From positions 75,488 to 139,487 of the forward strand of contig JBBQTA010000007.1 of assembly GCA_038213465.1 (NCBI GenBank): a stretch of DNA of 64,000 nt, given 5' to 3'. Under the pieces are notes generated by a model that saw nothing but the letters and a program-made list of their open reading frames with translations, had not been told where the DNA came from and ran no database searches. Positions within the stretch are counted from its first letter, which is position 1. Each line of letters begins with the position of its first letter. The position numbers were made by a program, and so were the translations under genes. Of the stretch, positions 18,016 to 61,627 are shown in pieces. Source of the DNA: Gemmatimonadales bacterium (GTDB lineage Bacteria > Gemmatimonadota > Gemmatimonadetes > Gemmatimonadales > Gemmatimonadaceae).

Positions 18016-18198
18016 CGAGACGGGTCACGGCAGGAGAGTGCGGTCTCTGGACAGCGGTGGGAGGCGGGGTTAGTTCAGGGGTGCGCCAGCGGGCGACCAT
18101 GAACGCCGCCGCCGAACACACCCTTGCTCGAACTTATCATTGGCTCGCGGAAAGCACACGGGGCGAGCCACCATCTGGAGCACCATTTGGAGCATCGA

Positions 18199-19380: not shown

Positions 19381-19390
19381 GCCGCGAGAC

Positions 19391-19879
19391 CTACTTGCCC
19401 GGCATCACCGCGACACACTCGATCTCGACTTTGGCACCCGGCGAGACGAGCGCTGCGACCACGACCGTGCTCCGCGCCGGCGGCGTGGTCGGGAAGAACT
19501 CGCGATACGCCTGATTCATGCCGCCATAATCCTTCACGTCGATCAAAAAGACCGTGCACTTGGCCGCCTGTGCCATGGTCGTGCCGGCTGCCTCGAACAC
19601 CTGCTTGATGTTGTCCAGCGCGACCTTGGTCTGCCCGCCAACCGTGCTGTCCGGCGCATCCCGCTTCATTCCCAGCTGTCCCGACGAGTAGACCACATCG
19701 CCGATCCGGATGCCTGGGGTCAGCGTGGCCGACGCGCTCATCCCCTTCGGCACGATCGGAATACGCGTCTGCGCCTGCATGGCCACCGGGCTCAGGAAGA
19801 CCATGGTGGCCAGCGCCGTCGAGGCGGCACGGGCGAGCGACGGGTGAGCACGGAAGGAAAGCGCACGGGACTGAGCCAT
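19391..19879 (-). CDS. RidA/YjgF family imine/enamine deaminase with an N-terminal signal-like extension
   Basis: YSSGQLG; QTKVALDNIKQVFEAAG; KCTVFLIDVKDYGGMNQAYREFF; PPARSTV (conserved Arg); KVEIECVA. Confidence 0.9.
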   Translation of the reverse strand: MAQSRALSFRAHPSLARAASTALATMVFLSPVAMQAQTRIPIVPKGMSASATLTPGIRIGDVVYSSGQLGMKRDAPDSTVGGQTKVALDNIKQVFEAAGTTMAQAAKCTVFLIDVKDYGGMNQAYREFFPTTPPARSTVVVAALVSPGAKVEIECVAVMPGK

Positions 19880-20478: not shown

Positions 20479-21930
20479 ATGCCGGATGAGTTCAACCCGT
20501 TCCTGAGCGCGGATTTCGACACCGAGTCGATGCCCCGCCGCGACTTCCTCCGCCTTGCCGGTGTCGGCGCGGGGGCGTTGCTGGCCACCGGGTGCGCCAC
20601 CGTCCCTGCGGCGCAGGTGCGCGGGCTCGAACCCAGGGCGAGTGGCGGGAAGGGCGTGGGTAGTGTCGTCGTGGTTGGCGCGGGTGCGTGGGGCGGCTGG
20701 ACCGCTTATCACCTGCGCAAGCGCGGCGCCAAGGTCACGCTCATCGACGCGTACGGCGCCGGCAACTCCCGCTCGACCAGCGGCGACGAGTCGCGCGGCA
20801 TCCGCTCGTCGTATGGCGACCGGACGGTCGGCGAGCTCTGGACCCCCTGGGCGCGTGAAGCCATCCGCCGCTGGGCCGCGTTCGACGCGGAATGGGGCCC
20901 CACATTCGGCACCAGGTTTTATCACCAGACCGGCGATGTCATCATGCGGGAGAAGGACGAGCCGTTCCTCAAGCGCACGCTCGACCTGTGGACGGCGAAC
21001 AACGTCGCCCACGAGGTCCTCACCGGCGACGAGGTGCGTAAACGCTGGCCGGTCATCAACGCGGACGACACGACGATCGCGATCTATGAGCCCGATGCCG
21101 GTGTGGCGCGCGCGCGTGCGTCCACGCAGGCCGTCGCCGCCGTCGCTGTGAAGATGGGCGTTAAGTTCATCCAATCGCGTGCCACGCTGCGCCCGATCGT
21201 CAACGGCAATCTGGATGGCGTGCAACTGGAAGACGGATCGATCATCCGCGGTGATGCGTACGTCTTCGCCTGCGGGCCGTGGCTGCGCAAGCTCTTCCCG
21301 GCGCTCATGGAAAACCGCATGCGCATCCCGCTCGGCTACGTCTGCTACTTCGGCACACCGGTGGGCGATTCGCGCTTCACCTATCCCAACCTGCCGAGCT
21401 ACAACTTTCCCGGCGTGACCGGATGGGCCGCGCTTCCCACGGACAGTCGCGGATTCCGCGTGCGCGGCGGTATTGCCGCGCCGCAGCCGCCAGAAACGCC
21501 GGACCAGAAGGCCGAACGCGAGGCGCGGGCCAAGGCTGCCCCGCCACCGCCGCCCCCCGATCCCCTGCAGAACGATCCCGATACGAGCACGCGATGGGCC
21601 GCCCCCGATCGCATCGAGGGAATGCGTCGCTTCGTGCAACGTCGCTTCCCCCTCCTCGCCGACGCGCCGCTGCTCGAAACGCGCTGCTGCCACTACGAGT
21701 CGAGCATCAATCGCGACTTCATCGTGGATCACGTGCCAGACACGAGGAATGCGTGGATCGCCGGCGTCGGACAATCCGAAGGTTTCAAGTTCGGTCCCGT
21801 GGTCGGCGAGTACATCGCCCAACGTGTGCTCGGCGTCGACGGCGACCCGAAGCTGATCAAGGCCTTCGCGCTGCCCACCGATCAGTACGAAGTGCCACGA
21901 GCGCCGGGCGACGAGGACGACGTGTTCTGA
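20479..21930 (+). CDS. Tat-exported FAD-dependent oxidoreductase (DAO/sarcosine oxidase family)
   Basis: Twin-arginine signal PRRDFL; Rossmann VVVVGAGAWGGWTA...LID; RSTSGDESRGIR; YVFACGPW; GFKFGPVVGE. Confidence 0.88.
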   Translation: MPDEFNPFLSADFDTESMPRRDFLRLAGVGAGALLATGCATVPAAQVRGLEPRASGGKGVGSVVVVGAGAWGGWTAYHLRKRGAKVTLIDAYGAGNSRSTSGDESRGIRSSYGDRTVGELWTPWAREAIRRWAAFDAEWGPTFGTRFYHQTGDVIMREKDEPFLKRTLDLWTANNVAHEVLTGDEVRKRWPVINADDTTIAIYEPDAGVARARASTQAVAAVAVKMGVKFIQSRATLRPIVNGNLDGVQLEDGSIIRGDAYVFACGPWLRKLFPALMENRMRIPLGYVCYFGTPVGDSRFTYPNLPSYNFPGVTGWAALPTDSRGFRVRGGIAAPQPPETPDQKAEREARAKAAPPPPPPDPLQNDPDTSTRWAAPDRIEGMRRFVQRRFPLLADAPLLETRCCHYESSINRDFIVDHVPDTRNAWIAGVGQSEGFKFGPVVGEYIAQRVLGVDGDPKLIKAFALPTDQYEVPRAPGDEDDVF

Positions 21931-37634: not shown

Positions 37635-38267
37635 ATGGCCGCTCCCCGACCCGATCCGCCCGCCATCCACGATCGCGCCCTGCAGGACCTGTCGTTCATC
37701 CGGCGGACCATGGAAGGCGCGGCCGCGTTCACCGATGTGCCGGGGTGGGGGCTGGTCGGACTCGGCGTCACGGCACTGGTGGCCGCACCGATCGCCGATC
37801 GGCAGCCGAGCGCGGAACGGTGGCTCTTGGTCTGGCTCCTCGCCGCAGTCGTCGGCGCATCGATCGGCAGTGGAACGATGCTGCACAAGATGCGACGCCG
37901 GGTCGGCAACGGCGGCGCTGTCCTGCTCAACGTGCCCGCGCGAAAATTTCTCTTCGGGTTGTGGCCCGGCATCCTTGTCGGCGCGCTGCTGACGATCGCG
38001 CTGGTCGATCCGTACACATCGGGGATCGAGCTGCGTCTCATGACGTGTGTGCTGCCGGGACTCTGGCTCCTGCTCTACGGGATGGGCGTGGCCACCGCGG
38101 GGACGGTCTCTATTCGCGCCGTGCCGCTGATGGGCATCGGCTTCATCGCACTCGGCGTCATCGCACTCTTTCTTCTCGCGGCTGATGGTGACTTGATGAT
38201 GGCACTCGGCTTCGGACTCCTGCACATCGTGTTCGGTGTGCGTATCGCCCGGAGGCATGGTGGGTAA
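37635..38267 (+). CDS. Hypothetical multi-TM membrane protein
   Basis: ALQDLSFIRRTME N-terminal motif and about six hydrophobic helices. Overlaps the downstream regulator. Confidence 0.8.
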   Translation: MAAPRPDPPAIHDRALQDLSFIRRTMEGAAAFTDVPGWGLVGLGVTALVAAPIADRQPSAERWLLVWLLAAVVGASIGSGTMLHKMRRRVGNGGAVLLNVPARKFLFGLWPGILVGALLTIALVDPYTSGIELRLMTCVLPGLWLLLYGMGVATAGTVSIRAVPLMGIGFIALGVIALFLLAADGDLMMALGFGLLHIVFGVRIARRHGG

Positions 38268-43276: not shown

Positions 43277-43375
43277 CCGTTGGCTCGACACCCAGCGTTA
43301 TCGGCGTGACCGGCGTCACCAGCTTGTGCACCCGTTCGCTTGCCGCATCGTTTGATTATCCGTATTGCCTATGCC

Positions 43376-46348
43376 ATGGCTAATGACGTGTGGGCTACTC
43401 TCGTACGTGGATGCGTTGCGTTTTCGCACACGCAGGCGGGCGGTCTGGTGCGTACGTCCTTCAAGGACACGGGATCGCTCGTCAGCTCCCTCGTTCCCGG
43501 ATCGTCCGGCATCTACAAGGATCGTCTTACGCAACTGAAGAAGGATGTGAGCGCCGCCGGTGACGCGTTCAAGCCGATCATCAAGGCGGTCGACGCGGAG
43601 TCGAAGAAGGCATCGGACGCGGTCGCGAACATGGCGAAGGAACTGGGCACCGACCCGTTCACGTGGGAGGCCGCCGCGCGCGCCGCAACGGAACTCGGCT
43701 ACGTGCTGATCGCCCTCGATGCCGCGCTTGAGATCATCGCGAAGAAGGCCGCGGAGCCGGAGGCCAACCCGGCCACCCGCCAGCAGATCGAGGACCAGAT
43801 CCGGAACATCCGCGAGCCGTGGGTGGCGCCGTTTCGCGCCATGGGCGTCGGTACCACGTCCGGCTTCGACGCGCTGTGCAAGACCGTGCTGCATCTCGAC
43901 AACGCCGGTGAAAGGTTCGCGACGCAGCTCACCTGGTCCCGCGCGCAGAAGCGGCTCGCGCTCACCCTGGGTGCCCTTGGCCCCATCGGCCTTGGCACGC
44001 CGGGACCGCGGGGCGCGACCCCGATCAGTCTCGATGGCGTCGAAGTGGAGGCGTTCTTCAGCTATCTCAACACCGCGAAGCTCGGCCTCGCGATTCGCAC
44101 GCGCATGCGCGCCGGGCTGCGCGGCGACAAGATGCTGGAGACGATCATTCCGCAGCAGGCACCCGCGGCGAACTCCAGTTCCGTCGCGATCGCCCTCGAT
44201 ACGAAGGATGGATTGACGTTCGGCGACGGACCCAATCGCACCATCGTACTGCCCGTCCGCTTCAATTTCCCGGGCATCGAGTTGCGCGAGATGAGCATGG
44301 CGCGCCCGGTCGGCAAAGAAGAAAACAGCGGCCGGATCGATTTGATGGTCACGATTGCCGGCAAGCTGGGCGAGGTCTTCGGCGTGGTGGCCGAGGGTGG
44401 CGGCGTCACGATTCGCTGGAAAGGCGATGCGAATGCCGCCGTGGAGGTGTTGCCCAAGCCGCCCACCGGCACCGGTCTGCGCCTCAAGACCGGGCTCGTC
44501 ACGGGCGGCGGCTATCTGCGTTACAAAGAGGCCGCCGGTGAATACGGTGGTGTGCTCGATCTGCAGTTCACGAAAATCGGTGTCACCGCGGCCGGACTGA
44601 TCACGTTCGATCCGTTTTCGCTCGTCCTGATCATGGGCGTGCACTTCTTTCCGAAGATCGAGTTGAGTTACGGCTTCACGCTCAACGGCTTGGGTGGCAT
44701 CATCGCGCTCAATCGCGGTCTGTCGACGGTTGAACTGGCGAAGGGGCTGCAGGAGGGCGCGCTCGATCAATTGCTCTTCCCGAGCGACCCTGTCGCGGCG
44801 GCGCCGAAGATGCTTGATCGCATCGGAAGGATCTTTCCGCCGCGCGACGGTGCGGTCGTGGTCGGGCCGATTGCCGAGTTGGGGTGGGGGTCGCAGTCGG
44901 GCTTCGTGAAAGCCAAGATCGGCGTGGTGCTCGCGCTGCCCGACCCGATGCTCGTGGTGCTGGGTGTAATGAGCGTGATAGTGCCGTCGCCCGAGGTGCC
45001 GGTGTTTTTGCGCACGGTCGACTTGCATGCCGAGTTGATGGTCGTGATCACGCCGGACTATGTGCTCGCGCGTGTCTCGCTCGTGAAGTCGAAGCTCGCC
45101 AACCTGACCGTGTCCGGTGATCTCGGCTTGTTCGTGCGCTGGAATGCCGGTGCCGAGTTCGCGATTTCCGTTGGCGGATTCTTCCCAGGGTACCTGCCGC
45201 CGTCGGAATTGACTGGACTGCGCCGGATTACCATCGAAGTGTCACCGCCCGTTCCGTGGATCACGATCCGCGCGGAAGCGTACGTTGCGATCACGGCGAA
45301 CACCGTGCAGTTTGGCGGACGCGTGTCACTGATCGCCGATCTGGGGATCGTCGGCGGCAAGGCGTGGATTGGCGTGGATGCCATGTTCTTCTGGACACCG
45401 CACCTCCACTTCATCTTCGAGATCAACGCCGGGATCGAACTTACCGCGCTCGGCGAAACGATCGCGGGCGTGCGCTTTCAGGGGCGGCTGTCGGGGATGA
45501 CGCCGTGGCGGCTTGAGGGACGGGCGAGCGTCAAGATTCTGCTGTGGGACGTGCCCTTCGATCTCGGCCCGATCGAGTGGGGGGAGAAGTATGTCGCACC
45601 CGTTGCCGCGGTATCGCCGGTGCAGTTGGCCGCCGCTGCGCTGCGCGCAGATACCGCATGGAAGCCAATCCTGCCGTCGGGAACGGACGCGCTGGCACGC
45701 TTCCGCGAGGATGACCTCGCGCCGTCGCTTCTGCATCCGTTGGGTGCGCTCGAAGTGAAGCAGCTGCGCGTGCCCTTCGAGACGGACATCGACCGCATTG
45801 GTTCCAGTCCCGTCACGTCGCGCCGCGTGCATCTGGCCGATCCGCAGGTGGGCACCATCGCGGCGCAGACCGTGTCGCACGCCGCCGACCACTTCGCGCC
45901 TGGGCACTTCAAGGATCTGACGCAGGATCAACAGACGTCGCGGCGGAGCTTCGAGGAATTTCCCTGCGGCATACGAGTCGCCGCGACCAGCGGCGCACTC
46001 TACGGCGCGCCGACATCCGTGACGTACGGGTGGGAGACCGCGTACCCCCACGAATCGTTCGGTCGTGCGCGTACCGCCTTCGCGCAGCTGGACATGGTGG
46101 CGGCCGCGGCGCTGCGGTCCAACGCGGTGTCCGCCAGCGCGAGGCAAACAGCCAATCCGTACATGCCCACGCAACCGGATCCCGTGCCGCTCACCATTGC
46201 CGATGCCGGACGCGTGCGGATCGTGCGACGCGTCGATCTGAGTGTCGTGGCCGACGTGACGACATCGATGACCACCGCCGACGCGTTCGACCGGCTCGAC
46301 GCTCTGGCGCCGTTGTATGGGGACACCCTCCAACTCGTGACCGCCTGA
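43376..46348 (+). CDS. Large uncharacterised protein, DUF6603-like (operon gene 1, 990 aa)
   Basis: Strand- and Gly-rich core (GGGYL...EYGGVL.L; ELSYGFTLNGLGGIIALNR; VGPIAELGWG; LAISVGGF.P.Y; AYVAITANTVQFGG; DAMFFW.P...F) matches my recollection of DUF6603 proteins. Start moved from TTG 43340 to ATG 43376. No signal peptide. Confidence 0.8.
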   Translation: MANDVWATLVRGCVAFSHTQAGGLVRTSFKDTGSLVSSLVPGSSGIYKDRLTQLKKDVSAAGDAFKPIIKAVDAESKKASDAVANMAKELGTDPFTWEAAARAATELGYVLIALDAALEIIAKKAAEPEANPATRQQIEDQIRNIREPWVAPFRAMGVGTTSGFDALCKTVLHLDNAGERFATQLTWSRAQKRLALTLGALGPIGLGTPGPRGATPISLDGVEVEAFFSYLNTAKLGLAIRTRMRAGLRGDKMLETIIPQQAPAANSSSVAIALDTKDGLTFGDGPNRTIVLPVRFNFPGIELREMSMARPVGKEENSGRIDLMVTIAGKLGEVFGVVAEGGGVTIRWKGDANAAVEVLPKPPTGTGLRLKTGLVTGGGYLRYKEAAGEYGGVLDLQFTKIGVTAAGLITFDPFSLVLIMGVHFFPKIELSYGFTLNGLGGIIALNRGLSTVELAKGLQEGALDQLLFPSDPVAAAPKMLDRIGRIFPPRDGAVVVGPIAELGWGSQSGFVKAKIGVVLALPDPMLVVLGVMSVIVPSPEVPVFLRTVDLHAELMVVITPDYVLARVSLVKSKLANLTVSGDLGLFVRWNAGAEFAISVGGFFPGYLPPSELTGLRRITIEVSPPVPWITIRAEAYVAITANTVQFGGRVSLIADLGIVGGKAWIGVDAMFFWTPHLHFIFEINAGIELTALGETIAGVRFQGRLSGMTPWRLEGRASVKILLWDVPFDLGPIEWGEKYVAPVAAVSPVQLAAAALRADTAWKPILPSGTDALARFREDDLAPSLLHPLGALEVKQLRVPFETDIDRIGSSPVTSRRVHLADPQVGTIAAQTVSHAADHFAPGHFKDLTQDQQTSRRSFEEFPCGIRVAATSGALYGAPTSVTYGWETAYPHESFGRARTAFAQLDMVAAAALRSNAVSASARQTANPYMPTQPDPVPLTIADAGRVRIVRRVDLSVVADVTTSMTTADAFDRLDALAPLYGDTLQLVTA

Positions 46349-46351
46349 CTC

Positions 46352-49300
46352 ATGCCCGGTTCACTCAGCGCAGCGCGCGGCTACGTCACGAACGCGTTCG
46401 CGACCGCTCTCGCCACACCCTTCGTGCCCGAGAACACGGTCTTCGGCGAGTACACGTTCGTCCCGTGGGCGCGCACAGGACTGGCCGCCGCGCAGGCATC
46501 GCCAGGCGCGGATCCGTTGCGCGCGACGGTGCGCGTCTCACTGACGGTCCGGGACGACGCGGCGACGTCGGAACAGGTGGAGCGGACACTGATATTGCGC
46601 GGGCCAGGCGATGTGATCGGACTCGATCCCGCGCAGATCATCCGTCGGTATCCCGTGCACGGCACCAAGGACGCCGAAGAGAGTGTGCTGGCGCACATCG
46701 AGTTCGACCGACCGGAACTGCCGTGGCTCTTCTCGCCAGTTGCGTCGGAGGGCAATCGCATCGCGCCGTGGCTGGTGTTGGTGGTGTGCGACGCGAGCCG
46801 CGCCACCGAGCAAGCCGGCCCGCCCGGACTCCCGCGACAACTCGTCACGCACCTAGGCGAGTTGCAGGCGCTGGAGGATTCGTGGGCGTGGGCGCACGCG
46901 CAGATCATCGGCGCTGCTGCGGGCGTGCCAACCGTCGCCGATCGTCTGTCCGCCAGTTACGGTCCCGCCAATCTTTCCCGGTTGATGTGTCCGCGAAAAC
47001 TCGACAAAGGCACGCGATACATCGCTGCGCTCGTGCCGGCCTTCGACTGCGGCAGGCAAACCGGCCTCGGCGCGACGGGTGGCACCCTCGAACCCGCGTG
47101 GGTCAGGGCCGGCGATGGCAGCGATGCGGACACGCAGATCGTTCTGCCGGTCTTCGACAGCTGGCAGTTTGCCGTGGCCGACGGTGGCGATTTCGAGCTG
47201 CTCGCCGGGCGCTTGCAGGGCGTGGTGGCTCCCTGGAATGTGGGCCGTCGCCTGATCGATGTGCGTACACCACACGGGAACGTCACCGATCTCGCGCCTG
47301 GCGACGCGGGCACTACGCAAGTGCTGCGCTGCGCACTCGTGTCGCCAACAGCTGTCCCCGCCGACCAGCCACCGGATTCGAGCGCGTGGTCGGTGGAGAA
47401 GCGTGACGAACTCCGCGTGGAAGTCGACCGGTCCAACGCCGTCGATGAAGATCTGCCACGAGTCGGCGCGCGCCTGTATGCCCAGTTTCAACGTGGGGCC
47501 ACTGCCTTAGGCCCCGTGTTTGGATCGCCCGCGACAAGCGCTGACGCCGCGGATGCCGATTGGTTCACGCAGCTCAACACATCTCCCATGCACCGGGTGA
47601 TCGCCGGCCTCGGCACGCGCGTCGTGCAGCGGGATCAGGAACAGCTCCTGCAGTCGGCGTGGGCGCAGGTCGGCGAATTGCAGAAGACGAATGCTGCGCT
47701 GGTCCGCTTGCAGTTCGGCCGGTATGTCGGCGAATCGTTGCATCGGAATCATCTCACGAAGCTTGGCCTTGGTGAACTGACGCAAGTGTTACGCGGTGTA
47801 CACGCGCGCGTGTCAGCCAGCGGCACCGCCCTCACCATGCACGGGGTACTCGCGCGCAGCACGTCGTCGCCGATGGCGATGACCTCGGCCTTCCGCCGAT
47901 TCGTCAGAGTGCGCGGACCACTCGCGCGCTTCGCCACGGCCCGCGAGGTTGGCGCGCTCAGGAGCATCGTGGCGCAGGGCCAGCAGTATCGGGATTTTCG
48001 ACGCACGTATGTGGAACCGGACGGGGTGCGGACCCTGTCGGCCAGCGCCATCGCAGCACTGCCGGCGGCGCTGGTCGCGCGCAAGCTTGGCGTGTCCGAG
48101 GCAACGGCGCCTGCAGTACTCGCGCGCCGACTCGCCGATCGCACCACGTTGTCGGTCGCCGATCGGCTTGCCCAGCCGGTGGCCAGCTGGCGCGTCCCCG
48201 TTGGCAGTATGGATCTCGGGCAGCGTGCCGCGATCGCCATCGCCGCGCAGGTGGACGAAGCCATGCCGTCAAACTTTGCGCGTGACGCTGCGCGTGCCGA
48301 GGCCTTGGCACCTCTGCTCGTGGGCGTGGCCAACAGCACTGTGCCCGACGCCTCCGCACGTGCCAGGCTCGCCGTGAGTCGCATTGCCGGTCGCTTGCCG
48401 TTTTCGGGGATTCCGCCGAATGCGGGTATGCCGGTCAACATAGGCAACGCCGTGCGCGGCGCGGGCGTGGCGTTTGCCCGACCCAACGTGGTGTCTCGCG
48501 CGGGACTCAATCCCCAGCGTGCCGTGGCCGCCGTACTCCCCCGTGCGCGCTTCGAGACCGTGGCGTCGCGCCGCATCACGGAGACGCTGCTCGTCTCGAG
48601 AGCCGTCGCGTTCTCCGACCTGGCCACGTCTCTTTCGCAACTCATGATCGGGGTCGGAGTCTCCAAGTTGCCACGCACGCCGGATCGACCGGCGCTCACG
48701 TTCACGCGCACGGCGTTGCTCGCGACGGTGGCTCCCGCGGCCACGGCGACCCGCTATGCCGAGGCTCGGCTGGGTACGATGCCCACCTGGCTGCCAAACA
48801 CGTGGTTCGCCGATGGCCGCGTCGCACCCATCATGGCGGCACCGCGTTTCAATCACGCCATGTTCGACGCGCTGTACACGTACGATCGCGATTGGCTCGT
48901 TCCCGGTCTGGGTAGCATTCCGTTAACCGACTTTGTCACCGTCCTCGAAACCAACCCGGCGTTCACCGAGAGTTTTCTCGTGGGATTGTCGGATGAGATG
49001 GGACGCGAGCTCCTGTGGCGCGACTATCCCACCGATCAGCGAGGCACGTATTTCCGACGTTTCTGGAATCCGGACGCCGACGAACTGCCCATCGACATTC
49101 ACCGGTTTGCGCCGACGCCACTGGGATCCCATCTCACCGGCGGCGCACGCGGCAAAGTCGTGCTCGTGGTGCGTGGGGAAGTCGTGCGGCGCTACCCCGA
49201 CGCGATGCTGCTGGCCATGCGCGCCGACCGGTCGCCCGAGGCGGACGTACCCCCGCGATTCAGCGCGAACCCGAAAGACACAGCGCGCATTCTCTTTCAT

Positions 49301-49666
49301 CACCACCTCGCGCCCGACATCCTGCTCGTGGGATTCGATCTGTATCCAAGTCAGATCCAGTCGGAACCGTGGTGGTTCATTCTCGCGGAGAATCCGAGCG
49401 CGCCGCGGTTCGGCCTCGACCTGCCGCCGGTTGGCAATGGCGCAGCCGCACGCGGAGTGCAACGCAACAATCTCGACTGGAACGATCTGGGACCGTTGTC
49501 GCACAATCGCTTTCTCAATACAGCCGCGCGCACGCTGCAGATCGCCGACGGCGCGGGCGCTCCTGTGATCTGGCCCGATCACGCAGGAGTGGTCGCACGT
49601 ACGCTGCTGCAGAGCCCATTTCGTGCCGCGTTCCATGCGCGCAAACTCATTACGCCGCGGGTCTGA
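46352..49666 (+). CDS. Large uncharacterised protein (operon gene 2, 1104 aa)
   Basis: Long ORF starting 3 nt after gene 1. Motif-like blocks GPGDVIGLD, HIEFDRPELPWLFSP, SRLMCPRKL, WQF..GDFE, AGLGTRVV..DQE.L..SAW.Q, NPAFTESFLVGLSDEMGRELLWRDYPTDQRGTYFRRFW. Confidence 0.85.
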   Translation: MPGSLSAARGYVTNAFATALATPFVPENTVFGEYTFVPWARTGLAAAQASPGADPLRATVRVSLTVRDDAATSEQVERTLILRGPGDVIGLDPAQIIRRYPVHGTKDAEESVLAHIEFDRPELPWLFSPVASEGNRIAPWLVLVVCDASRATEQAGPPGLPRQLVTHLGELQALEDSWAWAHAQIIGAAAGVPTVADRLSASYGPANLSRLMCPRKLDKGTRYIAALVPAFDCGRQTGLGATGGTLEPAWVRAGDGSDADTQIVLPVFDSWQFAVADGGDFELLAGRLQGVVAPWNVGRRLIDVRTPHGNVTDLAPGDAGTTQVLRCALVSPTAVPADQPPDSSAWSVEKRDELRVEVDRSNAVDEDLPRVGARLYAQFQRGATALGPVFGSPATSADAADADWFTQLNTSPMHRVIAGLGTRVVQRDQEQLLQSAWAQVGELQKTNAALVRLQFGRYVGESLHRNHLTKLGLGELTQVLRGVHARVSASGTALTMHGVLARSTSSPMAMTSAFRRFVRVRGPLARFATAREVGALRSIVAQGQQYRDFRRTYVEPDGVRTLSASAIAALPAALVARKLGVSEATAPAVLARRLADRTTLSVADRLAQPVASWRVPVGSMDLGQRAAIAIAAQVDEAMPSNFARDAARAEALAPLLVGVANSTVPDASARARLAVSRIAGRLPFSGIPPNAGMPVNIGNAVRGAGVAFARPNVVSRAGLNPQRAVAAVLPRARFETVASRRITETLLVSRAVAFSDLATSLSQLMIGVGVSKLPRTPDRPALTFTRTALLATVAPAATATRYAEARLGTMPTWLPNTWFADGRVAPIMAAPRFNHAMFDALYTYDRDWLVPGLGSIPLTDFVTVLETNPAFTESFLVGLSDEMGRELLWRDYPTDQRGTYFRRFWNPDADELPIDIHRFAPTPLGSHLTGGARGKVVLVVRGEVVRRYPDAMLLAMRADRSPEADVPPRFSANPKDTARILFHHHLAPDILLVGFDLYPSQIQSEPWWFILAENPSAPRFGLDLPPVGNGAAARGVQRNNLDWNDLGPLSHNRFLNTAARTLQIADGAGAPVIWPDHAGVVARTLLQSPFRAAFHARKLITPRV

Positions 49667-49670
49667 CCAC

Positions 49671-52600
49671 ATGGCCGATGTGAACCTCGCTGAACTTCGT
49701 AAATGGCAGCGCGATGTGGCCGCCCGCGCTGGCGTGCGCGATGCGCTGGATGCGAGCATCGTGGCCCGAGCCGCCGAGCTGACTACGATGGACGTGCAAA
49801 TCGCAGACCTGCGCGCGCGAGGCGCTTCTGCCACGGCTTTGGAGAAACGGCGGGCTCGCGTACGTGATGCGCGGGACGCCGACGTGGGGTCGCTTGGCTT
49901 GGCCAACGACGAGTTACGCGACATCCTGAATCGCATCGCCCTCGACGCCGGCGATGCCGATGCCGGCGTTCCACTGTTGTTGCTGCCGGTGCGGCTCGAA
50001 ACGCGTTACTCCGCAGACCTGGCGTCGCTCCGCGTACGCATCTACCCCGACGACGTGCACATCGACACGCTCGATCGCGGGGTAAGCGACGAGGAGCGCG
50101 CCAGTGGTATGGCGTACTGGAACACCCGGTGGCGGGCGTCCGACGAGGAAGCCGCCGAGGCCTGGCGCTTGCTGCTGGACCAGGTCGGACGACACCGCGC
50201 CTTGTGGGTCGCGCGAACGCTCTCGCCGGTCAATCTCGGGCAACGGGCCAATGACGCGTCGCCCGGGTTTCCCGACGTCGCCCCCCGCTCGAACCGTCCG
50301 GCCGTCGCCCGCCTGCTGCCCGATGCGTTTTCTGCCGTCATCACGCAGGGCGCACAGCGCATCACCGCGACCGGTCGCGCCATCCTCCCCGACGTCACCG
50401 TTGGTCTGTTCGCCACGGACCTCACGGAGTTGAGCAGCGTCCTCGGTGCGAAGGTGGTGGCGGGCGCCGAATGGCTGGCCGACTACGATGAGGCGGTACG
50501 AATCGGCATGGCCATCACTGTACCGCTGCCGGAGCCCGGTGCCCGGGTAGATCGGCTGATCGTGTACGGTGTGCGCCGCGGGCTGCAGCCCAGGAACGCG
50601 CCAGTCGAACTGGCTGCGCTGCTGGAAGCCCACCGCTGCGGCGCGGGCTTCGCGTTCCTGCCGCAGGGGACGCCCACCAACAACACGGAGGACGATCGCG
50701 CCGGCTGGCAGCGTCGCGTCGAACCGCGGGCACCGGCCAACCATGCCAGCGCCATCGATATGCGCTCCAACGCCGCGGTGCTGGCAACCGCCCTTGGCCT
50801 CGACCCACTGGTCTTGGGCGAACTCGATCACGGCGAGGCGCGAGAGCAGGCGCGCGCGCAGGCCATGAACGTGGCCCTCTGGGGACCGTCGTGGGGAAGC
50901 TTCCTGGACAAGGTCAATCGCGTCACGAAGGATGGCGCGACGCTGACCGACTCTGCACGTGAAGACACGCGCGTGTTTCATCGCGATGTCGTGCGCGGAC
51001 GCGGACCGCTGCCCGCCGTGCGCGTCGGGAACCAACCGTACGGCGTCCTCCCCGTCAGCACTGTGTCGCGTTGGCGCCCGGACCGCTTCGAGGCCGGACT
51101 GCTGCCTGTGCTCACACGTCTGCGTGAGAAGTGGCGGCAATCGCTTGAGAATGTGCCGAGGTTGGGAACGGGTCCGATCGATGACACGCTGCTCGAACTG
51201 CTGGGGTCCACGCCGGTTTCCGGCGAGCTACGGGTGCGCACGGTGTTGGCATCGGAGTTCGCCCTCCTCGGCCGCGAAGTGTCCGGCAGCGATCAGTCCG
51301 AGGTGGACCTCGAGCGTATCATCGAAGAGATGATCTGGGAGGATGTGATCGCCAACGCGAGCCTCGTGCATCCCAGCGGATCGATGGGTGAACAGCGTCC
51401 GCTGTCACTGCCGCTGGCGCTGGACAGTGATGGAGCGTTCATCGACGCGCTGCTCGCGGGACGGCCGCCCGCCGCCGCCAGCGTCTTGCAGGTGTTGCTC
51501 GAACTGGCATGGGATCGGGCGCTCACGGATTGGCGGAACGATTCCGCAAATGGTCGGCTTCCGGAAGTCGTGCGCAACGCCACGACGCTCACGGCGGTCG
51601 ATCGGGAGCGCACGCTGGCCGTCGCCACGCAGGCCGCAACGACGCCGTCGGCCACGTTCTTTGCGGAAGCGAACCGCGTCAGTGCGACCTTCGCTAAAGC
51701 CGCTCCCACCAAGGCCGAGTTTCAGCCGATTCAGTCGCAGGCGCGCTCCTTCGCCGAGCTGGCGCTCGAGTCCACCACGGTGTCGGCGCGGGCCGAACTC
51801 GGACTGTACGGCACGTATGCCTGGCTGCACTCGCAAGGGCGGCTGAACGAGATCCGTGAAGCCCTGACTGAGCTTCGCGGCACCACCCTCATCGAGCGGC
51901 GCATCTTGGTGGCCGAGACGCTCGACATTGCGTCGCACCGACTCGACGCGTGGATCACGGGACTGGTCGAACGTCGGCGTCGCGCGCAGCGCGTCACCAA
52001 ACCCGAGGGTCTGTCGATCGGCGCGTATGGCTGGGTCGAGGATATCGAGCCCACAGATGGTCGCGCCGCCGATGGCGGCTTCGTGCACGCCCCGAGTCTC
52101 ACGCAGGCGGCGACTGTGGGCGTGCTGCGGAGCGCCTATCTCTCGCACAATGCCGACGCGGCCGGCGACGGCGCCTTTGCCATTGATCTGTCGAGTGCGC
52201 GCGTGAGGTCGGCCTTGCATCTTCTCGAAGGCGTTCGCCAGGGGCAATCGTTGGGCGGACTGCTGGGATACCGCTGCGAACGTGCCATACACGAGGCGGA
52301 ACTCGACCGCTTCATTCTTTCGCTGCGCACGATCGCGCCGCTCACACAGGGCAAGCTGACCGATCGCAGCGAGACCGTGGCATCCGGTGCGCAGGAAGCG
52401 CTGGCGGCCGGCAATGTGCTCGACGGAATCGAGTTGGTGGAGAAGTATCAGGGCAAGGTGGCGGGCTGGAACGCAGACGAGATTCGCCGGCGGTTGAATG
52501 TGCGGCCAACCAACAACCCCCATCTCGTGGGCGCATGGGACGCGCTCACCGACGACGAGTGGAGTCGCATGGATGCCGCGATACGTGACATGGCTGCGGC

Positions 52601-54215
52601 GCTCGATGCGACCTCAGACCTGCTGCTGGCCGAATCGGTGCACCAGTTGGTCGCCGGCAGCACCGCGCGAGCTGCGGCGGCGCTCGATGCGGCCAGCGGT
52701 GGCGACTCCGCACCGCCCGAGCCGGAGTTCGTGCTCACTCCTACCGATGGCATGCCGTTCACGTACCGCATCCTTGCGGTCGCGGGTGACGCCGCCGTCT
52801 GGACCATGACGCGACCGCGCAGTGCCGCCGAGCCCAGTCTCGAGGCATGGGTCGCGGCGCGACTCGGCGATCCTGCAACGATCGTCATCGCCTCGTTGGG
52901 AGATGGCAGCATGCTCAGCGTCGCGGACACGGGGCTGTCCGCGCTCGACCTCGTGTACGACGCCACCGACCGCGCGGCATTCGATCAGCGCCTGCGCGCC
53001 GCGCTCCCAACCATCGCGGGGGCCGACCTTCATGACATTCGCGATCCGGCGTGGGCGACTGAGTTGCGCGCAATCGGCGATGTCTTCGAGAGTGCGGCGT
53101 CGCTCCGCGCGGTGCTCGTCCGCGCGCGTCCGGCCACGCCAAGCGATCTGACGCTGCCCAACGCGCCAGCGACGCGCACGGTCAGCAACGATGCGCTCCA
53201 GTCGGCGCTCGCGCGTGCCGCGGCGGCGCGCGATCTGCTCGTGCTGCGCAGTCGGGTACTCGACGCGATGCTGGCCGACCAGGTGCACGAGACCGCACTG
53301 CTGCTGCCCGTGCTGGAGGACCTCGCAGCGTTCGGGCTGGTGCCACCACTCGTGGCGCAGGACCAGCTACCCATCGTCGCCCAATCCATTCTCGCCAGCG
53401 CGATCCGTCGCGTGAAGACCGCCGACGCCGCGCTGGCGCGTCCGGCGTCGCCCGAGAGCGTGCTTGAGGCCGGGCAGGCGATCTTTGGCGACGGATTCTG
53501 GATCGTGCCCGCCATCGGCGCGCCCGATACGGCGGACGGCTGGAGCGCGGCGCTCGATGCGACACCGGTTGGCGCCACGGCGACGGCGGTCCAGATGCTG
53601 CTCACCGACTATGCGTCGGTGCGGGACGGCACGCGTCGCTATCTGGAAGCATCCATGCTCACCGACGCGCCTCCGCCGATCGCGGTGCAGTTGGCCGGTT
53701 TCGGAAAAAATCCGCCGACCGGGTGGGTCGGAGGTGCGATGCCACTGGACGCGCCCACGCCCGATACGCCCGTGGTCAGCACGCTGCTGGATATCGCGGG
53801 GCAGTACGACGGTCAGAGCGAGACCGTGGCGCTCGTCCTCGATGAGTGGATGGAAGTGGTGCCCATCAGAGCGCGGCGCGGCGCGGCCGACGATGCGCCG
53901 ATTGTCGAACGACGCACGACCGGGATCACCTTCAACGCGATGGCGCCTTCCGCGCGGGCACCGCAAGTCATACTGCTGGCCATTGCGCCGGACGCGCAGC
54001 GATGGACCGGGAGCAGCATCGTGGACGTGCTCGACGACACGCTCGAACTCGCGCGCCTCCGCGCCGTCACACTCGAACGCACGAACGGCGTCGCGCGCAT
54101 CCTGCCCGCGCTATACGAGCAGAGCTGGTCGCTGCAAGGCGAGAAAGTCATGCACCTCAGCGATCGTGTGAATCTCGTCACCGCGTTTGCCGCCTACACC
54201 AAGGAACAGCCGTGA
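49671..54215 (+). CDS. Very large uncharacterised protein (operon gene 3, 1514 aa)
   Basis: ATG 4 nt after the gene 2 stop. Blocks PLLLLPVRLETRY, RVRIYPDDVHID, GRGPLPAVRVGNQPYGVLP, ETLDIASHRLDAWITG, DLSSARVR.A..LLEGVRQGQSLGGLLGY..ER, LVLDEWMEVVP, APSARAPQVILLA. Confidence 0.85.
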   Translation: MADVNLAELRKWQRDVAARAGVRDALDASIVARAAELTTMDVQIADLRARGASATALEKRRARVRDARDADVGSLGLANDELRDILNRIALDAGDADAGVPLLLLPVRLETRYSADLASLRVRIYPDDVHIDTLDRGVSDEERASGMAYWNTRWRASDEEAAEAWRLLLDQVGRHRALWVARTLSPVNLGQRANDASPGFPDVAPRSNRPAVARLLPDAFSAVITQGAQRITATGRAILPDVTVGLFATDLTELSSVLGAKVVAGAEWLADYDEAVRIGMAITVPLPEPGARVDRLIVYGVRRGLQPRNAPVELAALLEAHRCGAGFAFLPQGTPTNNTEDDRAGWQRRVEPRAPANHASAIDMRSNAAVLATALGLDPLVLGELDHGEAREQARAQAMNVALWGPSWGSFLDKVNRVTKDGATLTDSAREDTRVFHRDVVRGRGPLPAVRVGNQPYGVLPVSTVSRWRPDRFEAGLLPVLTRLREKWRQSLENVPRLGTGPIDDTLLELLGSTPVSGELRVRTVLASEFALLGREVSGSDQSEVDLERIIEEMIWEDVIANASLVHPSGSMGEQRPLSLPLALDSDGAFIDALLAGRPPAAASVLQVLLELAWDRALTDWRNDSANGRLPEVVRNATTLTAVDRERTLAVATQAATTPSATFFAEANRVSATFAKAAPTKAEFQPIQSQARSFAELALESTTVSARAELGLYGTYAWLHSQGRLNEIREALTELRGTTLIERRILVAETLDIASHRLDAWITGLVERRRRAQRVTKPEGLSIGAYGWVEDIEPTDGRAADGGFVHAPSLTQAATVGVLRSAYLSHNADAAGDGAFAIDLSSARVRSALHLLEGVRQGQSLGGLLGYRCERAIHEAELDRFILSLRTIAPLTQGKLTDRSETVASGAQEALAAGNVLDGIELVEKYQGKVAGWNADEIRRRLNVRPTNNPHLVGAWDALTDDEWSRMDAAIRDMAAALDATSDLLLAESVHQLVAGSTARAAAALDAASGGDSAPPEPEFVLTPTDGMPFTYRILAVAGDAAVWTMTRPRSAAEPSLEAWVAARLGDPATIVIASLGDGSMLSVADTGLSALDLVYDATDRAAFDQRLRAALPTIAGADLHDIRDPAWATELRAIGDVFESAASLRAVLVRARPATPSDLTLPNAPATRTVSNDALQSALARAAAARDLLVLRSRVLDAMLADQVHETALLLPVLEDLAAFGLVPPLVAQDQLPIVAQSILASAIRRVKTADAALARPASPESVLEAGQAIFGDGFWIVPAIGAPDTADGWSAALDATPVGATATAVQMLLTDYASVRDGTRRYLEASMLTDAPPPIAVQLAGFGKNPPTGWVGGAMPLDAPTPDTPVVSTLLDIAGQYDGQSETVALVLDEWMEVVPIRARRGAADDAPIVERRTTGITFNAMAPSARAPQVILLAIAPDAQRWTGSSIVDVLDDTLELARLRAVTLERTNGVARILPALYEQSWSLQGEKVMHLSDRVNLVTAFAAYTKEQP

Positions 54216-55903
54216 GTCTCGACCTCTTGGTGTCCGTCAAAGCCATCCCGGAGAATCTCCGGGCGCTCGCGCTCGGTCCTGCCGCGTGGACACGTCTTGA
54301 ACCGCAGTCGGTCAGCGGCGATCCGAGTTCGGGTCTCGAAGCCCGCGTGCACGATCCGCTCTGGCTGCTTGCCCGTCAGTGGCAGTTTGGTGAGTTCCGC
54401 GGCGAAGACGCCGGTACGCCATTCGCCGTACACGCGAGCACCGTGAGCGAGCGCGTCACGGCATGGCAACCCGGCAACCTGCAGAGTGATGCGGCGGCGT
54501 TGCCGATGCCGATGCACGAGCCGCTCGAGGTCAGTGTCGAGCGCGAGCCGCCTGCGGCCGGTGGCCCCGGCTTGCGGCAACGCGCCGAAGCGGGGTCGTT
54601 GCTGCGCACGGCACTGGCCGATGCTGGCCTGGACGCAAGCGCCTCGCTGTTGGCGGCCTGCCCCCTGGACGTCAGCGCACCAGGTATCCCGCGTCTGTTT
54701 CACGCGCTCGCCCTGAAGCACCCCGATGGGCACGCGGCCGCTGCCGCCCTCGACGCCGGCGATCCGGCGTGGCTGGACGGGGCGGGACCTGCCGCGCTCG
54801 CCGCCGCCGCCGCGTGGCTGGCGTGGTATCGCCAGAACGTGTCGGCATCGACGGCCTCAGATCCGAATTCGTGGATAGACGAACGGATCGAGTATCGCTT
54901 CTCCGTGCGCGTGGGTGAACCTGACACACAGCGGGTGTTCAGCGCCCCGCTGCACGAAGGGGGCGCGATCGACTGGTATTCGTTTGATCACGCGCCGAAC
55001 GGGCGGCTGGGGCTCTCCGAGGAACCGGAGGTTCAGCCGGCCACCACCGCGACGCGCACGGTGCTCGCGTCGCCCTTGAGCTTCAGCGGCATGCCGTCGG
55101 ACCGCCTCTGGCAGTTCGAAGACGGTGCCGTGAACTTCGGCAAGCTCAACGTATTCCCGCACGATCTCGCACGTCTCTGCTTCGTGGAGTTCGCGATGAT
55201 CTATGGCAGCGACTGGTTCGTGCTGCCAGTTGACCTCGACGCCGGAACCTTCACCACCGTGCGCGAACTGGCTTACACGACCACTTTTGGTGAGCGGTTC
55301 GTGGTCCCCCCGGCCGATGATGTCGGACGCTCCGGTCGCTTCTGCCTCTTCGAACTCGACCAGCTCGGCCGCAGCGGCACGCTCAACGGATTGTTCATCC
55401 CGCCGTCCAGCCGCGCCGCGGCGGAGGGGAATGCGCTGGAAGACGTGCTGTTTGTGAGAGACGAAAGCGCGAACATGGCGTGGGCGCTCGAGTCCACCGT
55501 GCAGGATGCGGGCGGCGACCCTCGCCGACGGCGTGACGAGCCTCAGGCGCCGATCGCTCCCGTGAATCCCGAGCCGCCCGGTGAATTGCACTACCGATTG
55601 GCCACCGGCGTCCCCCGGTTCTGGATCCCGTTGGTCCCGATGCCCAGCGCTGGTCGTCGCGGTGGCTTCGTGCTGCGGAAGGGGACCATGACGGATGTCG
55701 ATGAATCCGTCGGCCAGGTTCTCGATGCAACGCCATTCACACTGCACGAGGAGGAGGTGCCACGCGAAGGCGTGCGCGTCTCCCGAGTGCCCGCGCTGCT
55801 GCGCACCACCGATGGGCGCCGCATACGATGGATCGCGCGCCGAGTTGCCATCGGGACTGGCGAGGGCTCGAGCGGGCTGGCGTTCGACGGGGCAACGCGC
55901 TGA
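54212..55903 (+). CDS. Uncharacterised protein (operon gene 4, 563 aa)
   Basis: GTG overlaps the gene 3 stop (GTGA). Blocks WTRLEPQ, ARVHDPLWLLARQWQFGEFRGEDAGTP, GMPSDRLWQFED, EFAMIYGSDWFVLP, EDVLFVRDESANMAWALE, EEEVPREG, GEGSSGLAFD. Confidence 0.85.
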   Translation: MSLDLLVSVKAIPENLRALALGPAAWTRLEPQSVSGDPSSGLEARVHDPLWLLARQWQFGEFRGEDAGTPFAVHASTVSERVTAWQPGNLQSDAAALPMPMHEPLEVSVEREPPAAGGPGLRQRAEAGSLLRTALADAGLDASASLLAACPLDVSAPGIPRLFHALALKHPDGHAAAAALDAGDPAWLDGAGPAALAAAAAWLAWYRQNVSASTASDPNSWIDERIEYRFSVRVGEPDTQRVFSAPLHEGGAIDWYSFDHAPNGRLGLSEEPEVQPATTATRTVLASPLSFSGMPSDRLWQFEDGAVNFGKLNVFPHDLARLCFVEFAMIYGSDWFVLPVDLDAGTFTTVRELAYTTTFGERFVVPPADDVGRSGRFCLFELDQLGRSGTLNGLFIPPSSRAAAEGNALEDVLFVRDESANMAWALESTVQDAGGDPRRRRDEPQAPIAPVNPEPPGELHYRLATGVPRFWIPLVPMPSAGRRGGFVLRKGTMTDVDESVGQVLDATPFTLHEEEVPREGVRVSRVPALLRTTDGRRIRWIARRVAIGTGEGSSGLAFDGATR

Positions 55904-56079
55904 ACGTCACGATCGCGCGCGGCACGCGACTGCGATCGCGCAGTTCCTCCTCGATCGTTTCGTGTTCGGGACGGATGTGGCGGTTGACCGCAGGACCAAT
56001 CGGATGTCCTACATCGTTAAGTTGGGCGTGAGTCGGCGCGCGCGCGCTGACCGCGTCGCAACTCTCACGATGGACACCC

Positions 56080-60034: not shown

Positions 60035-60217
60035 CAGGCGACGGAGGTGGGACAGCGCGGAACTGACAGACAAAGATAGGTCGGGATTGGACGCCCGGAT
60101 TGGCGAAGGACCCGCCTCGTCCTCCCAAAACGGGACGGTGGTGCGAACAAAACATGAGCCTGCCGCGTAGACCTCGGATTGCTCTTTGATTTTTTGTCCC
60201 ACCTCGTCTGTTCAATC

Positions 60218-61627
60218 ATGCCAACGTCGCACATGCGCCAACGTTCTATTCTTCCGTTCTTTTTGTTGCTGAGCGCGTCGCTCGCGCTTGCATCAACCGC
60301 GTTCGCACAAGGCGGTCGTCCGCCGGGTGGCCCGCCGCCGGGCGTGATGGCACGACCAAGCGCACCCGACTCGCTGACGTTGCAGTCGCAGGCGATTCGG
60401 GTTTTTCTGGACTGTCAGGGCCGCGTGCGTGGCTGTGATCGCGACTTCATCGTGACCGATGTGAACTTCGTGAACTGGATGCGCGACCGGTTCGACGCCG
60501 ACGTCCAGATTCTCGTCTCCGGATTGACCAACGGCGGTGGCGGATCGGAGAACACGGTCACGTTCATCGGGCGTCGCGCCTTTGAAGGAATGGCGGACAC
60601 TCTGGTGCTGAACACGCTGCCGAATGACGCCGACGACGTCATCCGCCGCGAGCTGGCGCGCACGTTCAAACTGGGGCTCGCGCGATATGTGGCCCGGTCG
60701 CCCTTGGCGAAGCGCCTGCAGATCGCATACGTCGGGCCGGCCGGCATGCAACAGGCATCGCCGGCCAACCTCAAGGACAAGTGGAACCTCTGGACGTACA
60801 CGACGAACTTCAACGCGTTCGTGCGCGCCGAGGAGCAGCAGCAGTCGGTGAACGGTTCATTGTCGCTGGCGGCGAATCGTTCGACAGCGACCTGGAAGTT
60901 GAACACGTCGGTGAGTGGCAACGTGAATACGCAGAACTTCAAGATCGCCGCCACATCGACCCGCCCGGCGATCTCGGTACGCAACGAGCAGCGCACGTAC
61001 AACGCGAACAGTCTGATCGTGCGGTCGCTGAATACGCATTGGTCTGCCGGCGTGAAGGCTGGCGCCGGCTATTCGGACTTTCTCAACCAGGACCTCGCAC
61101 TGCGGTTGCAGCCGGCCGTTGAGTACAACGTGTTTCCTTGGACGGAGCAGACACGCCGCCAACTGACATTTCTGTACAACGTCGGTCCCAACTACTACAA
61201 TTACCAGCGCACGACGGTGCTCAATCGCGATTCGGAAACGCGATTCAGCCAACAAGCCACCGCGTCCTTGGTCGCCCGCCAGTCGTGGGGATCCTCCAAC
61301 GTCTCGCTGGACTGGTTGAACTACCTGCACGATGTCAGCCGACATGCACTCACGCTCAGCGGGAACGTCGACTTGCGCATCGGTCGCGGCTTCTCGCTCA
61401 ACATCGGTGGCTCCGCCGCCCGCGTGAACGATCAGATCTATCTCCCGCGCGCAGGCAACACCGAAGAAGAAATTCTCTTGCAGCGTCAGGCGCTGCAGAC
61501 CGGCTTTCGCATCACGACCAACGTCGGCGTTCGCTACACCTTTGGATCGATCTACAACACCATCGTGAACCAGCGCTTCAGCAGCCTTGGCTCGAGTGGC
61601 GGTCGATTCAACTTCCAGTTCTTCTGA
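60218..61627 (+). CDS. Putative outer-membrane beta-barrel protein
   Basis: Signal peptide (ASTAFA-Q); periplasmic alpha/beta N-domain with a Cys pair; alternating-strand C-domain ending in Phe (FNFQFF). Confidence 0.7.
   Translation: MPTSHMRQRSILPFFLLLSASLALASTAFAQGGRPPGGPPPGVMARPSAPDSLTLQSQAIRVFLDCQGRVRGCDRDFIVTDVNFVNWMRDRFDADVQILVSGLTNGGGGSENTVTFIGRRAFEGMADTLVLNTLPNDADDVIRRELARTFKLGLARYVARSPLAKRLQIAYVGPAGMQQASPANLKDKWNLWTYTTNFNAFVRAEEQQQSVNGSLSLAANRSTATWKLNTSVSGNVNTQNFKIAATSTRPAISVRNEQRTYNANSLIVRSLNTHWSAGVKAGAGYSDFLNQDLALRLQPAVEYNVFPWTEQTRRQLTFLYNVGPNYYNYQRTTVLNRDSETRFSQQATASLVARQSWGSSNVSLDWLNYLHDVSRHALTLSGNVDLRIGRGFSLNIGGSAARVNDQIYLPRAGNTEEEILLQRQALQTGFRITTNVGVRYTFGSIYNTIVNQRFSSLGSSGGRFNFQFF

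Follow-up and report, generated by a model that had tools for sequence, protein, structure and literature searches.

What do four very large, adjacent genes encode when no function has been assigned to any of them, and do they belong to one system? This question is raised by a stretch of 64,000 nucleotides (nt) from a Gemmatimonadales bacterium (assembly GCA_038213465.1, contig JBBQTA010000007.1, positions 75,488 to 139,487), the whole of which is called the window below. An original prediction, made from the letters alone, had described four co-directional open reading frames (ORFs) of 990, 1104, 1514 and 563 amino acids (aa), here g1 to g4, as a candidate for an undescribed macromolecular machine. 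We found that g1 to g4 constitute a previously undescribed module, and that no characterised system found resembles it. The module is rated as new because no paper mentioning DUF6603, PF20248 or IPR046538 (the family of g1) was found in the literature searched, and because the defining features of known systems that were tested are missing from it. Regarding its role, we tentatively prefer the reading that the four proteins are an envelope-directed apparatus, which would deliver or position enzymes and binding modules outside the cytoplasm of the producer and serve as a weapon between microbes.

The gene structure was confirmed when coordinates and junctions were read again directly in the sequence. 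The stop codon of g1 and the start codon of g2 are 3 nt apart (TGA-ctc-ATG), those of g2 and g3 are 4 nt apart (TGA-ccac-ATG), and g3 and g4 share a 4-nt overlap (GTGA), so that the four genes are coupled. The called frames have a GC content at third codon positions (GC3) of about 0.8, in a window of about 65% GC that shows no anomaly of GC content. Database gene calls on the same contig give identical products of 1514 and 563 aa with the same ends (P0001, P0288). Since hundreds to thousands of homologues exist per gene, g1 to g4 can be taken, on comparison of sequences, as real genes and not as chance ORFs of a 65% GC genome.

The occurrence of the four genes in other organisms argues most clearly for one unit. 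A scan of one genome per species retrieved 242 loci in 185,579 species genomes, a lower bound that depends on the two peptide patterns used. Eighty loci were fetched, and about 75 loci had enough contig for a comparison by tblastn with the four window proteins. All of them keep the arrangement g1-g2-g3-g4 on a single strand, absences being confined to contig ends, and the subunit sizes are conserved across loci. Both the patchy presence in unrelated bacteria, which the original prediction had mentioned, and the co-conservation, on which it had made its case depend, were thereby borne out. The module is found in at least 12 bacterial phyla as well as in haloarchaea. The closest relative, a Gemmatimonas metagenome-assembled genome (MAG) with 78-83% identity, belongs to the Gemmatimonadota, and further carriers are Alpha-, Beta- and Gammaproteobacteria, Chthoniobacterales, Chloroflexota, Acidobacteriota, many Actinomycetota including Streptomyces, Planctomycetota, Bacteroidales, Nitrospira, Aminicenantes, Nannocystis and Bacillota. 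Among the culturable carriers are Ensifer adhaerens, Rhizobium rhizogenes, Rhizobium lusitanum, Methylobacter tundripaludum, Novosphingobium, Streptomyces and Salinigranum, where orthology was confirmed by profile hidden Markov models. Large plasmids of Rhizobium, Streptomyces, Gemmatirosa and Paraburkholderia and megaplasmids of four haloarchaeal genera carry the module.

The surroundings, in contrast, are not constant. Flanking genes differ throughout, cassettes 75-83% identical to that of the window sit between different genes, no neighbour family proved to be conserved across about 75 loci, and in the clade of the window the module has no constant neighbours. A phage origin was considered and rejected, as the single match labelled as phage (MT835531) is a bacterial contig of 76% GC with LexA, LysR and alcohol dehydrogenase genes. 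The constant order across phyla, the differing flanks, the occurrence on plasmids and the lack of phage carriage characterise the module, as far as genome comparison can tell, as self-contained, horizontally mobile and obligately four-part. One could argue that g1 to g4 are mere neighbours on a mobile element, or serve its transfer or maintenance, rather than parts of one machine, given that they occur on plasmids and, in some genomes, beside integrases. We regard this as highly improbable: the colinearity is perfect while the surroundings change, no replication, conjugation or recombination domain was found in any of the four proteins, the module borders have neither flanking or terminal repeats nor tRNA genes, and an isolated g4 beside IS5 resembles decay and not independent function.

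Three single loci touch on this distribution. The isolated g4-like gene lies on a plasmid of Streptomyces anthocyanicus (L089, NZ_CP109276.1, positions 17980-19785); it encodes 601 aa, has no g1 to g3 with it, adjoins two IS5 transposase genes and an SMI1/KNR4 gene, and is apparently the remnant of a decayed module. The contig deposited as 'UNVERIFIED: Bacteriophage sp.' from a human faecal sample (L087, MT835531.1; 40 kb) also encodes a periplasmic binding protein, a SIR2 protein and a 1691-aa BTAD-nSTAND-WD40 protein, and looks like an actinobacterial chromosomal contig misfiled as phage. In a MAG labelled Burkholderiales (L006, JANMHY010000495.1) the cassette is 72-80% identical in protein to the versions of the window and of Gemmatimonas (74-80% over three complete genes, with only 113 g4 residues on the contig), whereas other proteobacterial copies are about 45-55% identical; this points to either a recent transfer across phyla or a binning error.

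The largest body of structural information was obtained for g1. Its suggested identity as a DUF6603 protein proved correct: PF20248 of Pfam matches residues 315-851 (profile positions 20-501 of 502) with an E-value of 3.5e-93 and 313.3 bits against a cutoff of 27, and it is present in all g1 homologues listed. The AlphaFold2 (AF2) model, with a predicted local distance difference test score (pLDDT) of 79.5 and a predicted template modelling score (pTM) of 0.60, shows a helical bundle at the N-terminus (about residues 1-184), then a region of about 30 long antiparallel β-strands connected by tight turns (about residues 185-735) and finally a C-terminal part of mixed structure. In Foldseek this model matched best with Deinococcus SlpA, the PapC/FimD ushers and LptD (E 8e-5 to 1e-3), a loose likeness to outer-membrane barrels of 24-30 strands; weak matches to the lipid-binding sheets of ApoB100 and vitellogenin were also obtained, and for barrels and sheets alike the template modelling (TM) score was about 0.15. 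A profile comparison with the PDB revealed no sequence similarity of g1 to giant β-barrels, and internal sequence repeats were not found. Positions conserved in at least 97% of the g1 sequences are almost only G or P.

Deinococcus SlpA resembles g1 in that a helical N-terminal part is followed by about 30 long antiparallel strands. Unlike SlpA, the ushers and LptD, however, g1 is made without a signal peptide, and its orthologues extend to Actinomycetota, Bacillota and haloarchaea. Monoderm bacteria and archaea possess neither an outer membrane nor the BAM machinery. Because g1 lacks a signal peptide and is present in such organisms, it is not an ordinary outer-membrane protein.

For g2, g3 and g4 no match was obtained in Pfam, NCBIfam, PADLOC or PHROGs, and NCBIfam, PADLOC and PHROGs gave nothing usable with g1. 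Searches of the PDB with single sequences and family profiles of all four proteins returned only coiled-coil or helical-bundle noise, and no paralogy among the four was found with hhalign. The homologues of g2 form 4737 representative clusters at 50% identity (E<=1e-3); two parts of the protein are conserved, at about residues 30-530 and 770-1100, and the variable middle takes β-propeller inserts in other lineages. The largest subunit, g3, has more than 1308 homologues, all named 'hypothetical', and its length is nearly constant across phyla at about 1500-1550 aa. It has a coiled-coil-like N-terminus (about residues 5-95) and the conserved motifs IYPDDIHxD and HAxTAGxLRS, and its profile gave only coiled-coil noise against the PDB. 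A GxSxG sequence at residue 858 of g3 was considered as a catalytic motif and rejected, because the family lacks a conserved serine there (consensus GQPLG). The smallest protein, g4, has at least 687 homologues and an AF2 model with pLDDT 77 and pTM 0.73, for which Foldseek found no structural neighbour in the PDB or BFVD. Conservation is strongest in residues 22-66 (including DPLWLLARQWQxGEF) and 289-335, two stretches that have a pLDDT below 50 and are unplaced in the otherwise confident monomer model, which suggests that they are interfaces with partners.

No signal peptide, lipobox or helical transmembrane segment was found in g1 to g4 by a hydropathy and signal check, and the highest 19-residue Kyte-Doolittle value, 2.24, belongs to a proline-containing stretch of g1 that is modelled as β-strands. 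A motif scan of the four proteins was likewise negative for Walker A, HExxH, CxxCH (heme), PD-(D/E)xK-like and HNH-like nuclease motifs. In g2 to g4 the positions conserved in at least 97% of the sequences are mainly R, W, P, G, D and E and form no recognisable catalytic constellation. The original prediction had described proteins of a non-enzymatic, structural look with short blocks rich in W, P, G and D, without export signals or the motifs just named and without an assigned function, and on all these points our results agree with it: apart from DUF6603, the searches of Pfam, NCBIfam, PADLOC, PHROGs, PDB profiles and Foldseek were uninformative, and no function was found in the databases or literature searched. 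The four proteins may be structural parts of one physical complex, possibly of fixed stoichiometry; indirect indications of a complex are the coupling of the genes, their universal co-occurrence and the unplaced conserved segments of g4, while the missing enzymatic families and motifs and the type of conservation suggest a structural character.

Indications as to the site of action come from relatives with additional domains. As judged from sequence, the lineage-specific domain additions on g1, g2 and g4 are all binding modules. The C-terminus of g4 is the site at which peptidoglycan-binding or lamin-tail domains are added: PG_binding_1 is fused to it in a Casimicrobiaceae MAG (L055) and in an independent database protein (P0343), and two lamin-tail domains in haloarchaea, where g3 carries the RefSeq label 'BGTF surface domain'. 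Streptomyces-type versions of g2 have FG-GAP/PQQ (annotated VCBS) propeller inserts together with a C-terminal DUF3892, and in Actinomadura g1 is fused to Kelch, with an additional Kelch gene after it.

The more divergent clades have a fifth gene on the same strand, immediately upstream of g1. In Nitrospira, Solirubrobacterales, Streptomyces and haloarchaea (L059, L067, L076, L079, L086, L075, L090) its product is a PhoD-like phosphoesterase of about 900-1000 aa, which is fused to a peptidoglycan-binding motif in S. longwoodensis (L090). An M64-like peptidase takes this place in Bacteroidales and Aminicenantes (L057, L061), an M23 peptidase in a Bacillota MAG (L081), an S8 peptidase in Actinomadura (L085) and a LamG+LGFP protein in Nannocystis (L062). 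None of the fifth-gene products has a signal peptide. In most of these loci the open frame of g1 extends back as far as the stop codon of the enzyme gene, which possible g1 start codons overlap or adjoin; the exceptions are L062 and L081, where the smallest possible gaps are 37 and 257 nt, respectively.

Two further accessory families are located directly after g4 in divergent actinobacterial and Gemmatimonadales loci, one of about 430 aa (L065, L070, L080) and one of about 525 aa with a Cys-rich N-terminus (CxxC...GGC; L072, L074). Neither has relatives in Pfam or the PDB.

From gene context and fused domains we infer the following function. The proteins g1 to g4 would be subunits of one large apparatus that the cell makes in its cytoplasm and that works at or across a cell envelope; the direction towards the envelope is suggested by the PG_binding_1, lamin-tail, FG-GAP/PQQ or VCBS and Kelch domains fused in relatives. 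In such an apparatus g1 may provide a giant β-sheet or barrel-like shell or conduit, and g2, g3 and g4 a scaffold that carries surface-binding modules in other lineages (peptidoglycan-binding, lamin-tail, FG-GAP/PQQ, Kelch). The signal-less enzyme of sister clades (PhoD-like, M64, M23 or S8) would be cargo or effector, and the version in the window a minimal four-protein core without a dedicated enzyme gene. Its role could be that of a released or envelope-breaching complex for the delivery of toxins or enzymes in microbial conflicts, following a logic like that of Tc toxins without homology to them. The more far-reaching proposal, that it represents a new class of envelope-breaching or cargo-delivering machine with the DUF6603 protein as a conduit or shell of about 30 strands and clade-specific hydrolases as payloads, is possible, yet we consider it doubtful.

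Several observations weigh against the envelope-directed apparatus. The β-barrel likeness of the g1 model is weak (TM about 0.15), and the AF2 models cover g1 and g4, while g2 and g3 make up 63% of the protein mass. The clade of the window is without the enzyme gene, phmmer found no adaptor domain shared among the accessory enzymes, and no secretion, lysis or release genes recur beside the module. At the RNA level, no run containing the window sequence was found; for the Novosphingobium orthologue there are sparse contigs of low depth only. Finally, DUF3892 has been predicted to act as an intracellular sensor in defence contexts (10.1101/2025.01.14.632903, 10.1101/2022.04.27.489752).

The cytoplasmic character of the proteins would equally be expected of an intracellular structural assembly, such as a scaffold, a shell or a lipid- or polymer-binding body, which has a physiological role, for example in stress or storage, and whose modules bind internal ligands. 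The structural type of conservation, the housekeeping neighbours and inconspicuous GC content in the window and the weak matches of g1 to the lipid-binding β-sheets of ApoB100 and vitellogenin are in line with such a body. It is nevertheless quite unlikely, given that the module is rare and patchy with the patterns used and horizontally mobile, that the accessory enzymes vary between clades, and that peptidoglycan-binding, LGFP, M23 and lamin-tail modules have no obvious ligand in the cytoplasm.

The list of candidates in the original prediction comprised a toxin or delivery complex, a lipid- or membrane-engaging machine, a protein shell and an anti-phage or anti-predator device. Our data favour, indirectly, the toxin/delivery and anti-phage options over the protein shell and the lipid machine, because sister clades carry signal-less, operon-coupled hydrolases together with cell-wall- or surface-binding modules. 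The anti-phage option can be worded as an abortive-infection device: a cytoplasmic complex would sense infection via propeller or DUF3892 modules, breach the envelope of its own cell and kill the infected cell, with g1 as a giant pore and with peptidoglycan-binding modules and hydrolases reaching the wall through the breach. This would explain why cell-wall-directed domains are present although all components lack export signals, and it agrees with the horizontally mobile distribution without synteny even between cassettes of 75-83% identity, with the location on megaplasmids and with the predicted link of DUF3892 to defence.

The neighbourhood of the module, which bears on the same option, gave a divided answer to the idea of a link with defence islands. 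Within 10-20 kb, several loci have toxin-antitoxin (TA), STAND, TIR or NB-ARC genes; some lie near integrase and PIN TA genes, others near AbiE TA genes or methyltransferase/HD/AAA genes. The 108 immediate neighbour ORFs, however, are mostly of housekeeping type with 2 integrases, no defence family is among their commonest Pfam matches, and neither the four proteins nor the downstream gene had a match in PADLOC-DB v2. The module shows no nucleoside triphosphatase (NTPase) and no nuclease, although one or the other is present in most known defence systems; in addition, 4170 aa of constitutive protein would be costly for a sensor plus effector. Taken together, we judge the abortive-infection device, the strongest of the rival readings, as rather unlikely.

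How does the envelope-directed apparatus that we prefer compare with described machines? Looked for in the module and not found were the features that define Tc toxins, contractile injection systems, outer-membrane barrels and AsmA/TamB-type proteins, as well as any match to the catalogued defence systems. Tc (ABC) toxins share with it the organisation in multi-gene operons and very large proteins without signal peptides. They consist of a large β-sheet shell around a cargo, an associated β-propeller, receptor-binding modules and a swappable toxic moiety. Counterparts of these may be seen in the β-domain of g1, in the added Kelch, FG-GAP and PQQ modules and in the enzyme genes that vary among sister clades. 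However, the Tc families VRP1, neuraminidase-like, TcA_TcB_BD, SpvB and RHS/YD had no Pfam match in the four proteins (E<=0.1), and no Tc or RHS structure is among the best 50 listed Foldseek matches of g1. Moreover, FG-GAP in the module is only a lineage-specific insert in g2 of other genomes, unlike in the TcB/TcC cocoon, and the enzyme is encoded by a separate upstream gene, whereas Tc toxins have a C-terminal hypervariable region. Unlike Tc toxins, the module also occurs in archaea, and its version in the window has no effector gene.

By analogy, extracellular contractile injection systems (eCIS), type VI secretion systems (T6SS) and tailocins may also be likened to the module, being self-contained, horizontally mobile, multiprotein and cargo-loaded weapons with structural proteins that lack signal peptides. 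The link to eCIS, T6SS or Tc systems that had been suggested was not confirmed: neither the four proteins nor any recurrent neighbour gave a match to a sheath, tube, baseplate, VgrG, PAAR or RHS family. In contrast to contractile systems, there is no sheath, tube, baseplate, spike, PAAR or AAA+ protein in or around the module, which comprises only four proteins, none of them related to phage families (no PHROG match), and has no true occurrence in phages. For AsmA, TamB and DUF490-type families no Pfam match was obtained in the four proteins, and TamB, VPS13 and ATG2 structures are absent from the best 50 listed Foldseek matches of g1.

Holin-endolysin and abortive-infection lysis modules resemble the module in making wall-binding or wall-degrading proteins without export signals. 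Signal-less endolysins reach the cell wall through the lesion made by a holin. Unlike holin-endolysin cassettes, the module has no small transmembrane holin, no phage context and four giant soluble-looking core proteins, and the hydrolase is absent from the clade of the window. A constant core with a swappable signal-less hydrolase would thus correspond, by analogy, to the logic of Tc toxins, eCIS and T6SS and also to that of holin-dependent endolysins; the likeness to Tc toxins or holin-endolysin systems concerns this logic only.

The families of g2, g3 and g4, with hundreds to thousands of clusters each, have no Pfam model, and neither a solved relative nor a paper was found for them. According to its model, g4 would have a fold without a detectable structural relative. 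All four families travel together in bacteria with one and with two membranes and in archaea. A module of 4,170 aa that is kept intact across such a range must do something important, and as it contains no NTPase, nuclease or known secretion component, its principle is probably not yet catalogued. As a delivery or lysis machine, it would represent a new kind of weapon or immune device of microbes and a candidate tool for protein delivery; as an intracellular body, it would represent a new ultrastructure of prokaryotes.

The layout of the locus is given in Table 1. In the window the module is flanked by genes of housekeeping type, KatG and gamma-glutamyltranspeptidase upstream and a TonB-dependent receptor downstream. 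The gamma-glutamyltranspeptidase was considered as a component of the module and rejected, since it carries a signal peptide and does not recur at other loci. In the leader upstream of g1, no sigma-70-like match on the + strand and no Rfam family was found, no terminator-like site was seen in the intergenic region after g4, and no RNA elements were found at the module. Two further ORFs of the window with coding-like GC3 and no Pfam match are included in the table.

Table 1. Positions of the module and of other features in the window
Feature	Positions	Strand	Length	Remarks
g1	43376-46348	+	990 aa	
g2	46352-49666	+	1104 aa	ATG start
g3	49671-54215	+	1514 aa	
g4	54212-55903	+	563 aa	GTG start
Intergenic leader	43277-43375	+	99 nt	Presumed promoter region, between gamma-glutamyltranspeptidase gene and g1
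Intergenic region, module end	55904-56079	+	176 nt	Followed by unrelated TonB-dependent receptor gene
ORF	60179-61627	+	482 aa	
ORF	37635-38267	+	210 aa	

Three other loci have noteworthy surroundings. On a plasmid of Streptomyces longwoodensis (L090/L088, NZ_CP109035.1) the five-gene module has many conflict genes around it, with an RHS repeat-associated core-domain toxin gene just upstream on the opposite strand and, downstream, an NB-ARC protein at about 6 kb and an SMI1/KNR4 (immunity-type) protein at about 16 kb. In Methylobacter tundripaludum (L091) an nSTAND1-TPR NTPase and a TIR_2 protein (14160-16604, 21180-21746) are encoded less than 10 kb downstream of the module. Downstream of g4 in Rhizobium rhizogenes (L093-L095, 12448-17516) there are two GH25 lysozymes and a PLD-like protein. 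The lysozymes were considered as cargo and rejected, in view of their signal peptides and an AT-rich gap of 700 nt; because of the signal peptides, their genes look like a separate module, and one of the two lysozymes is fused to a caspase-like Peptidase_C14 domain.

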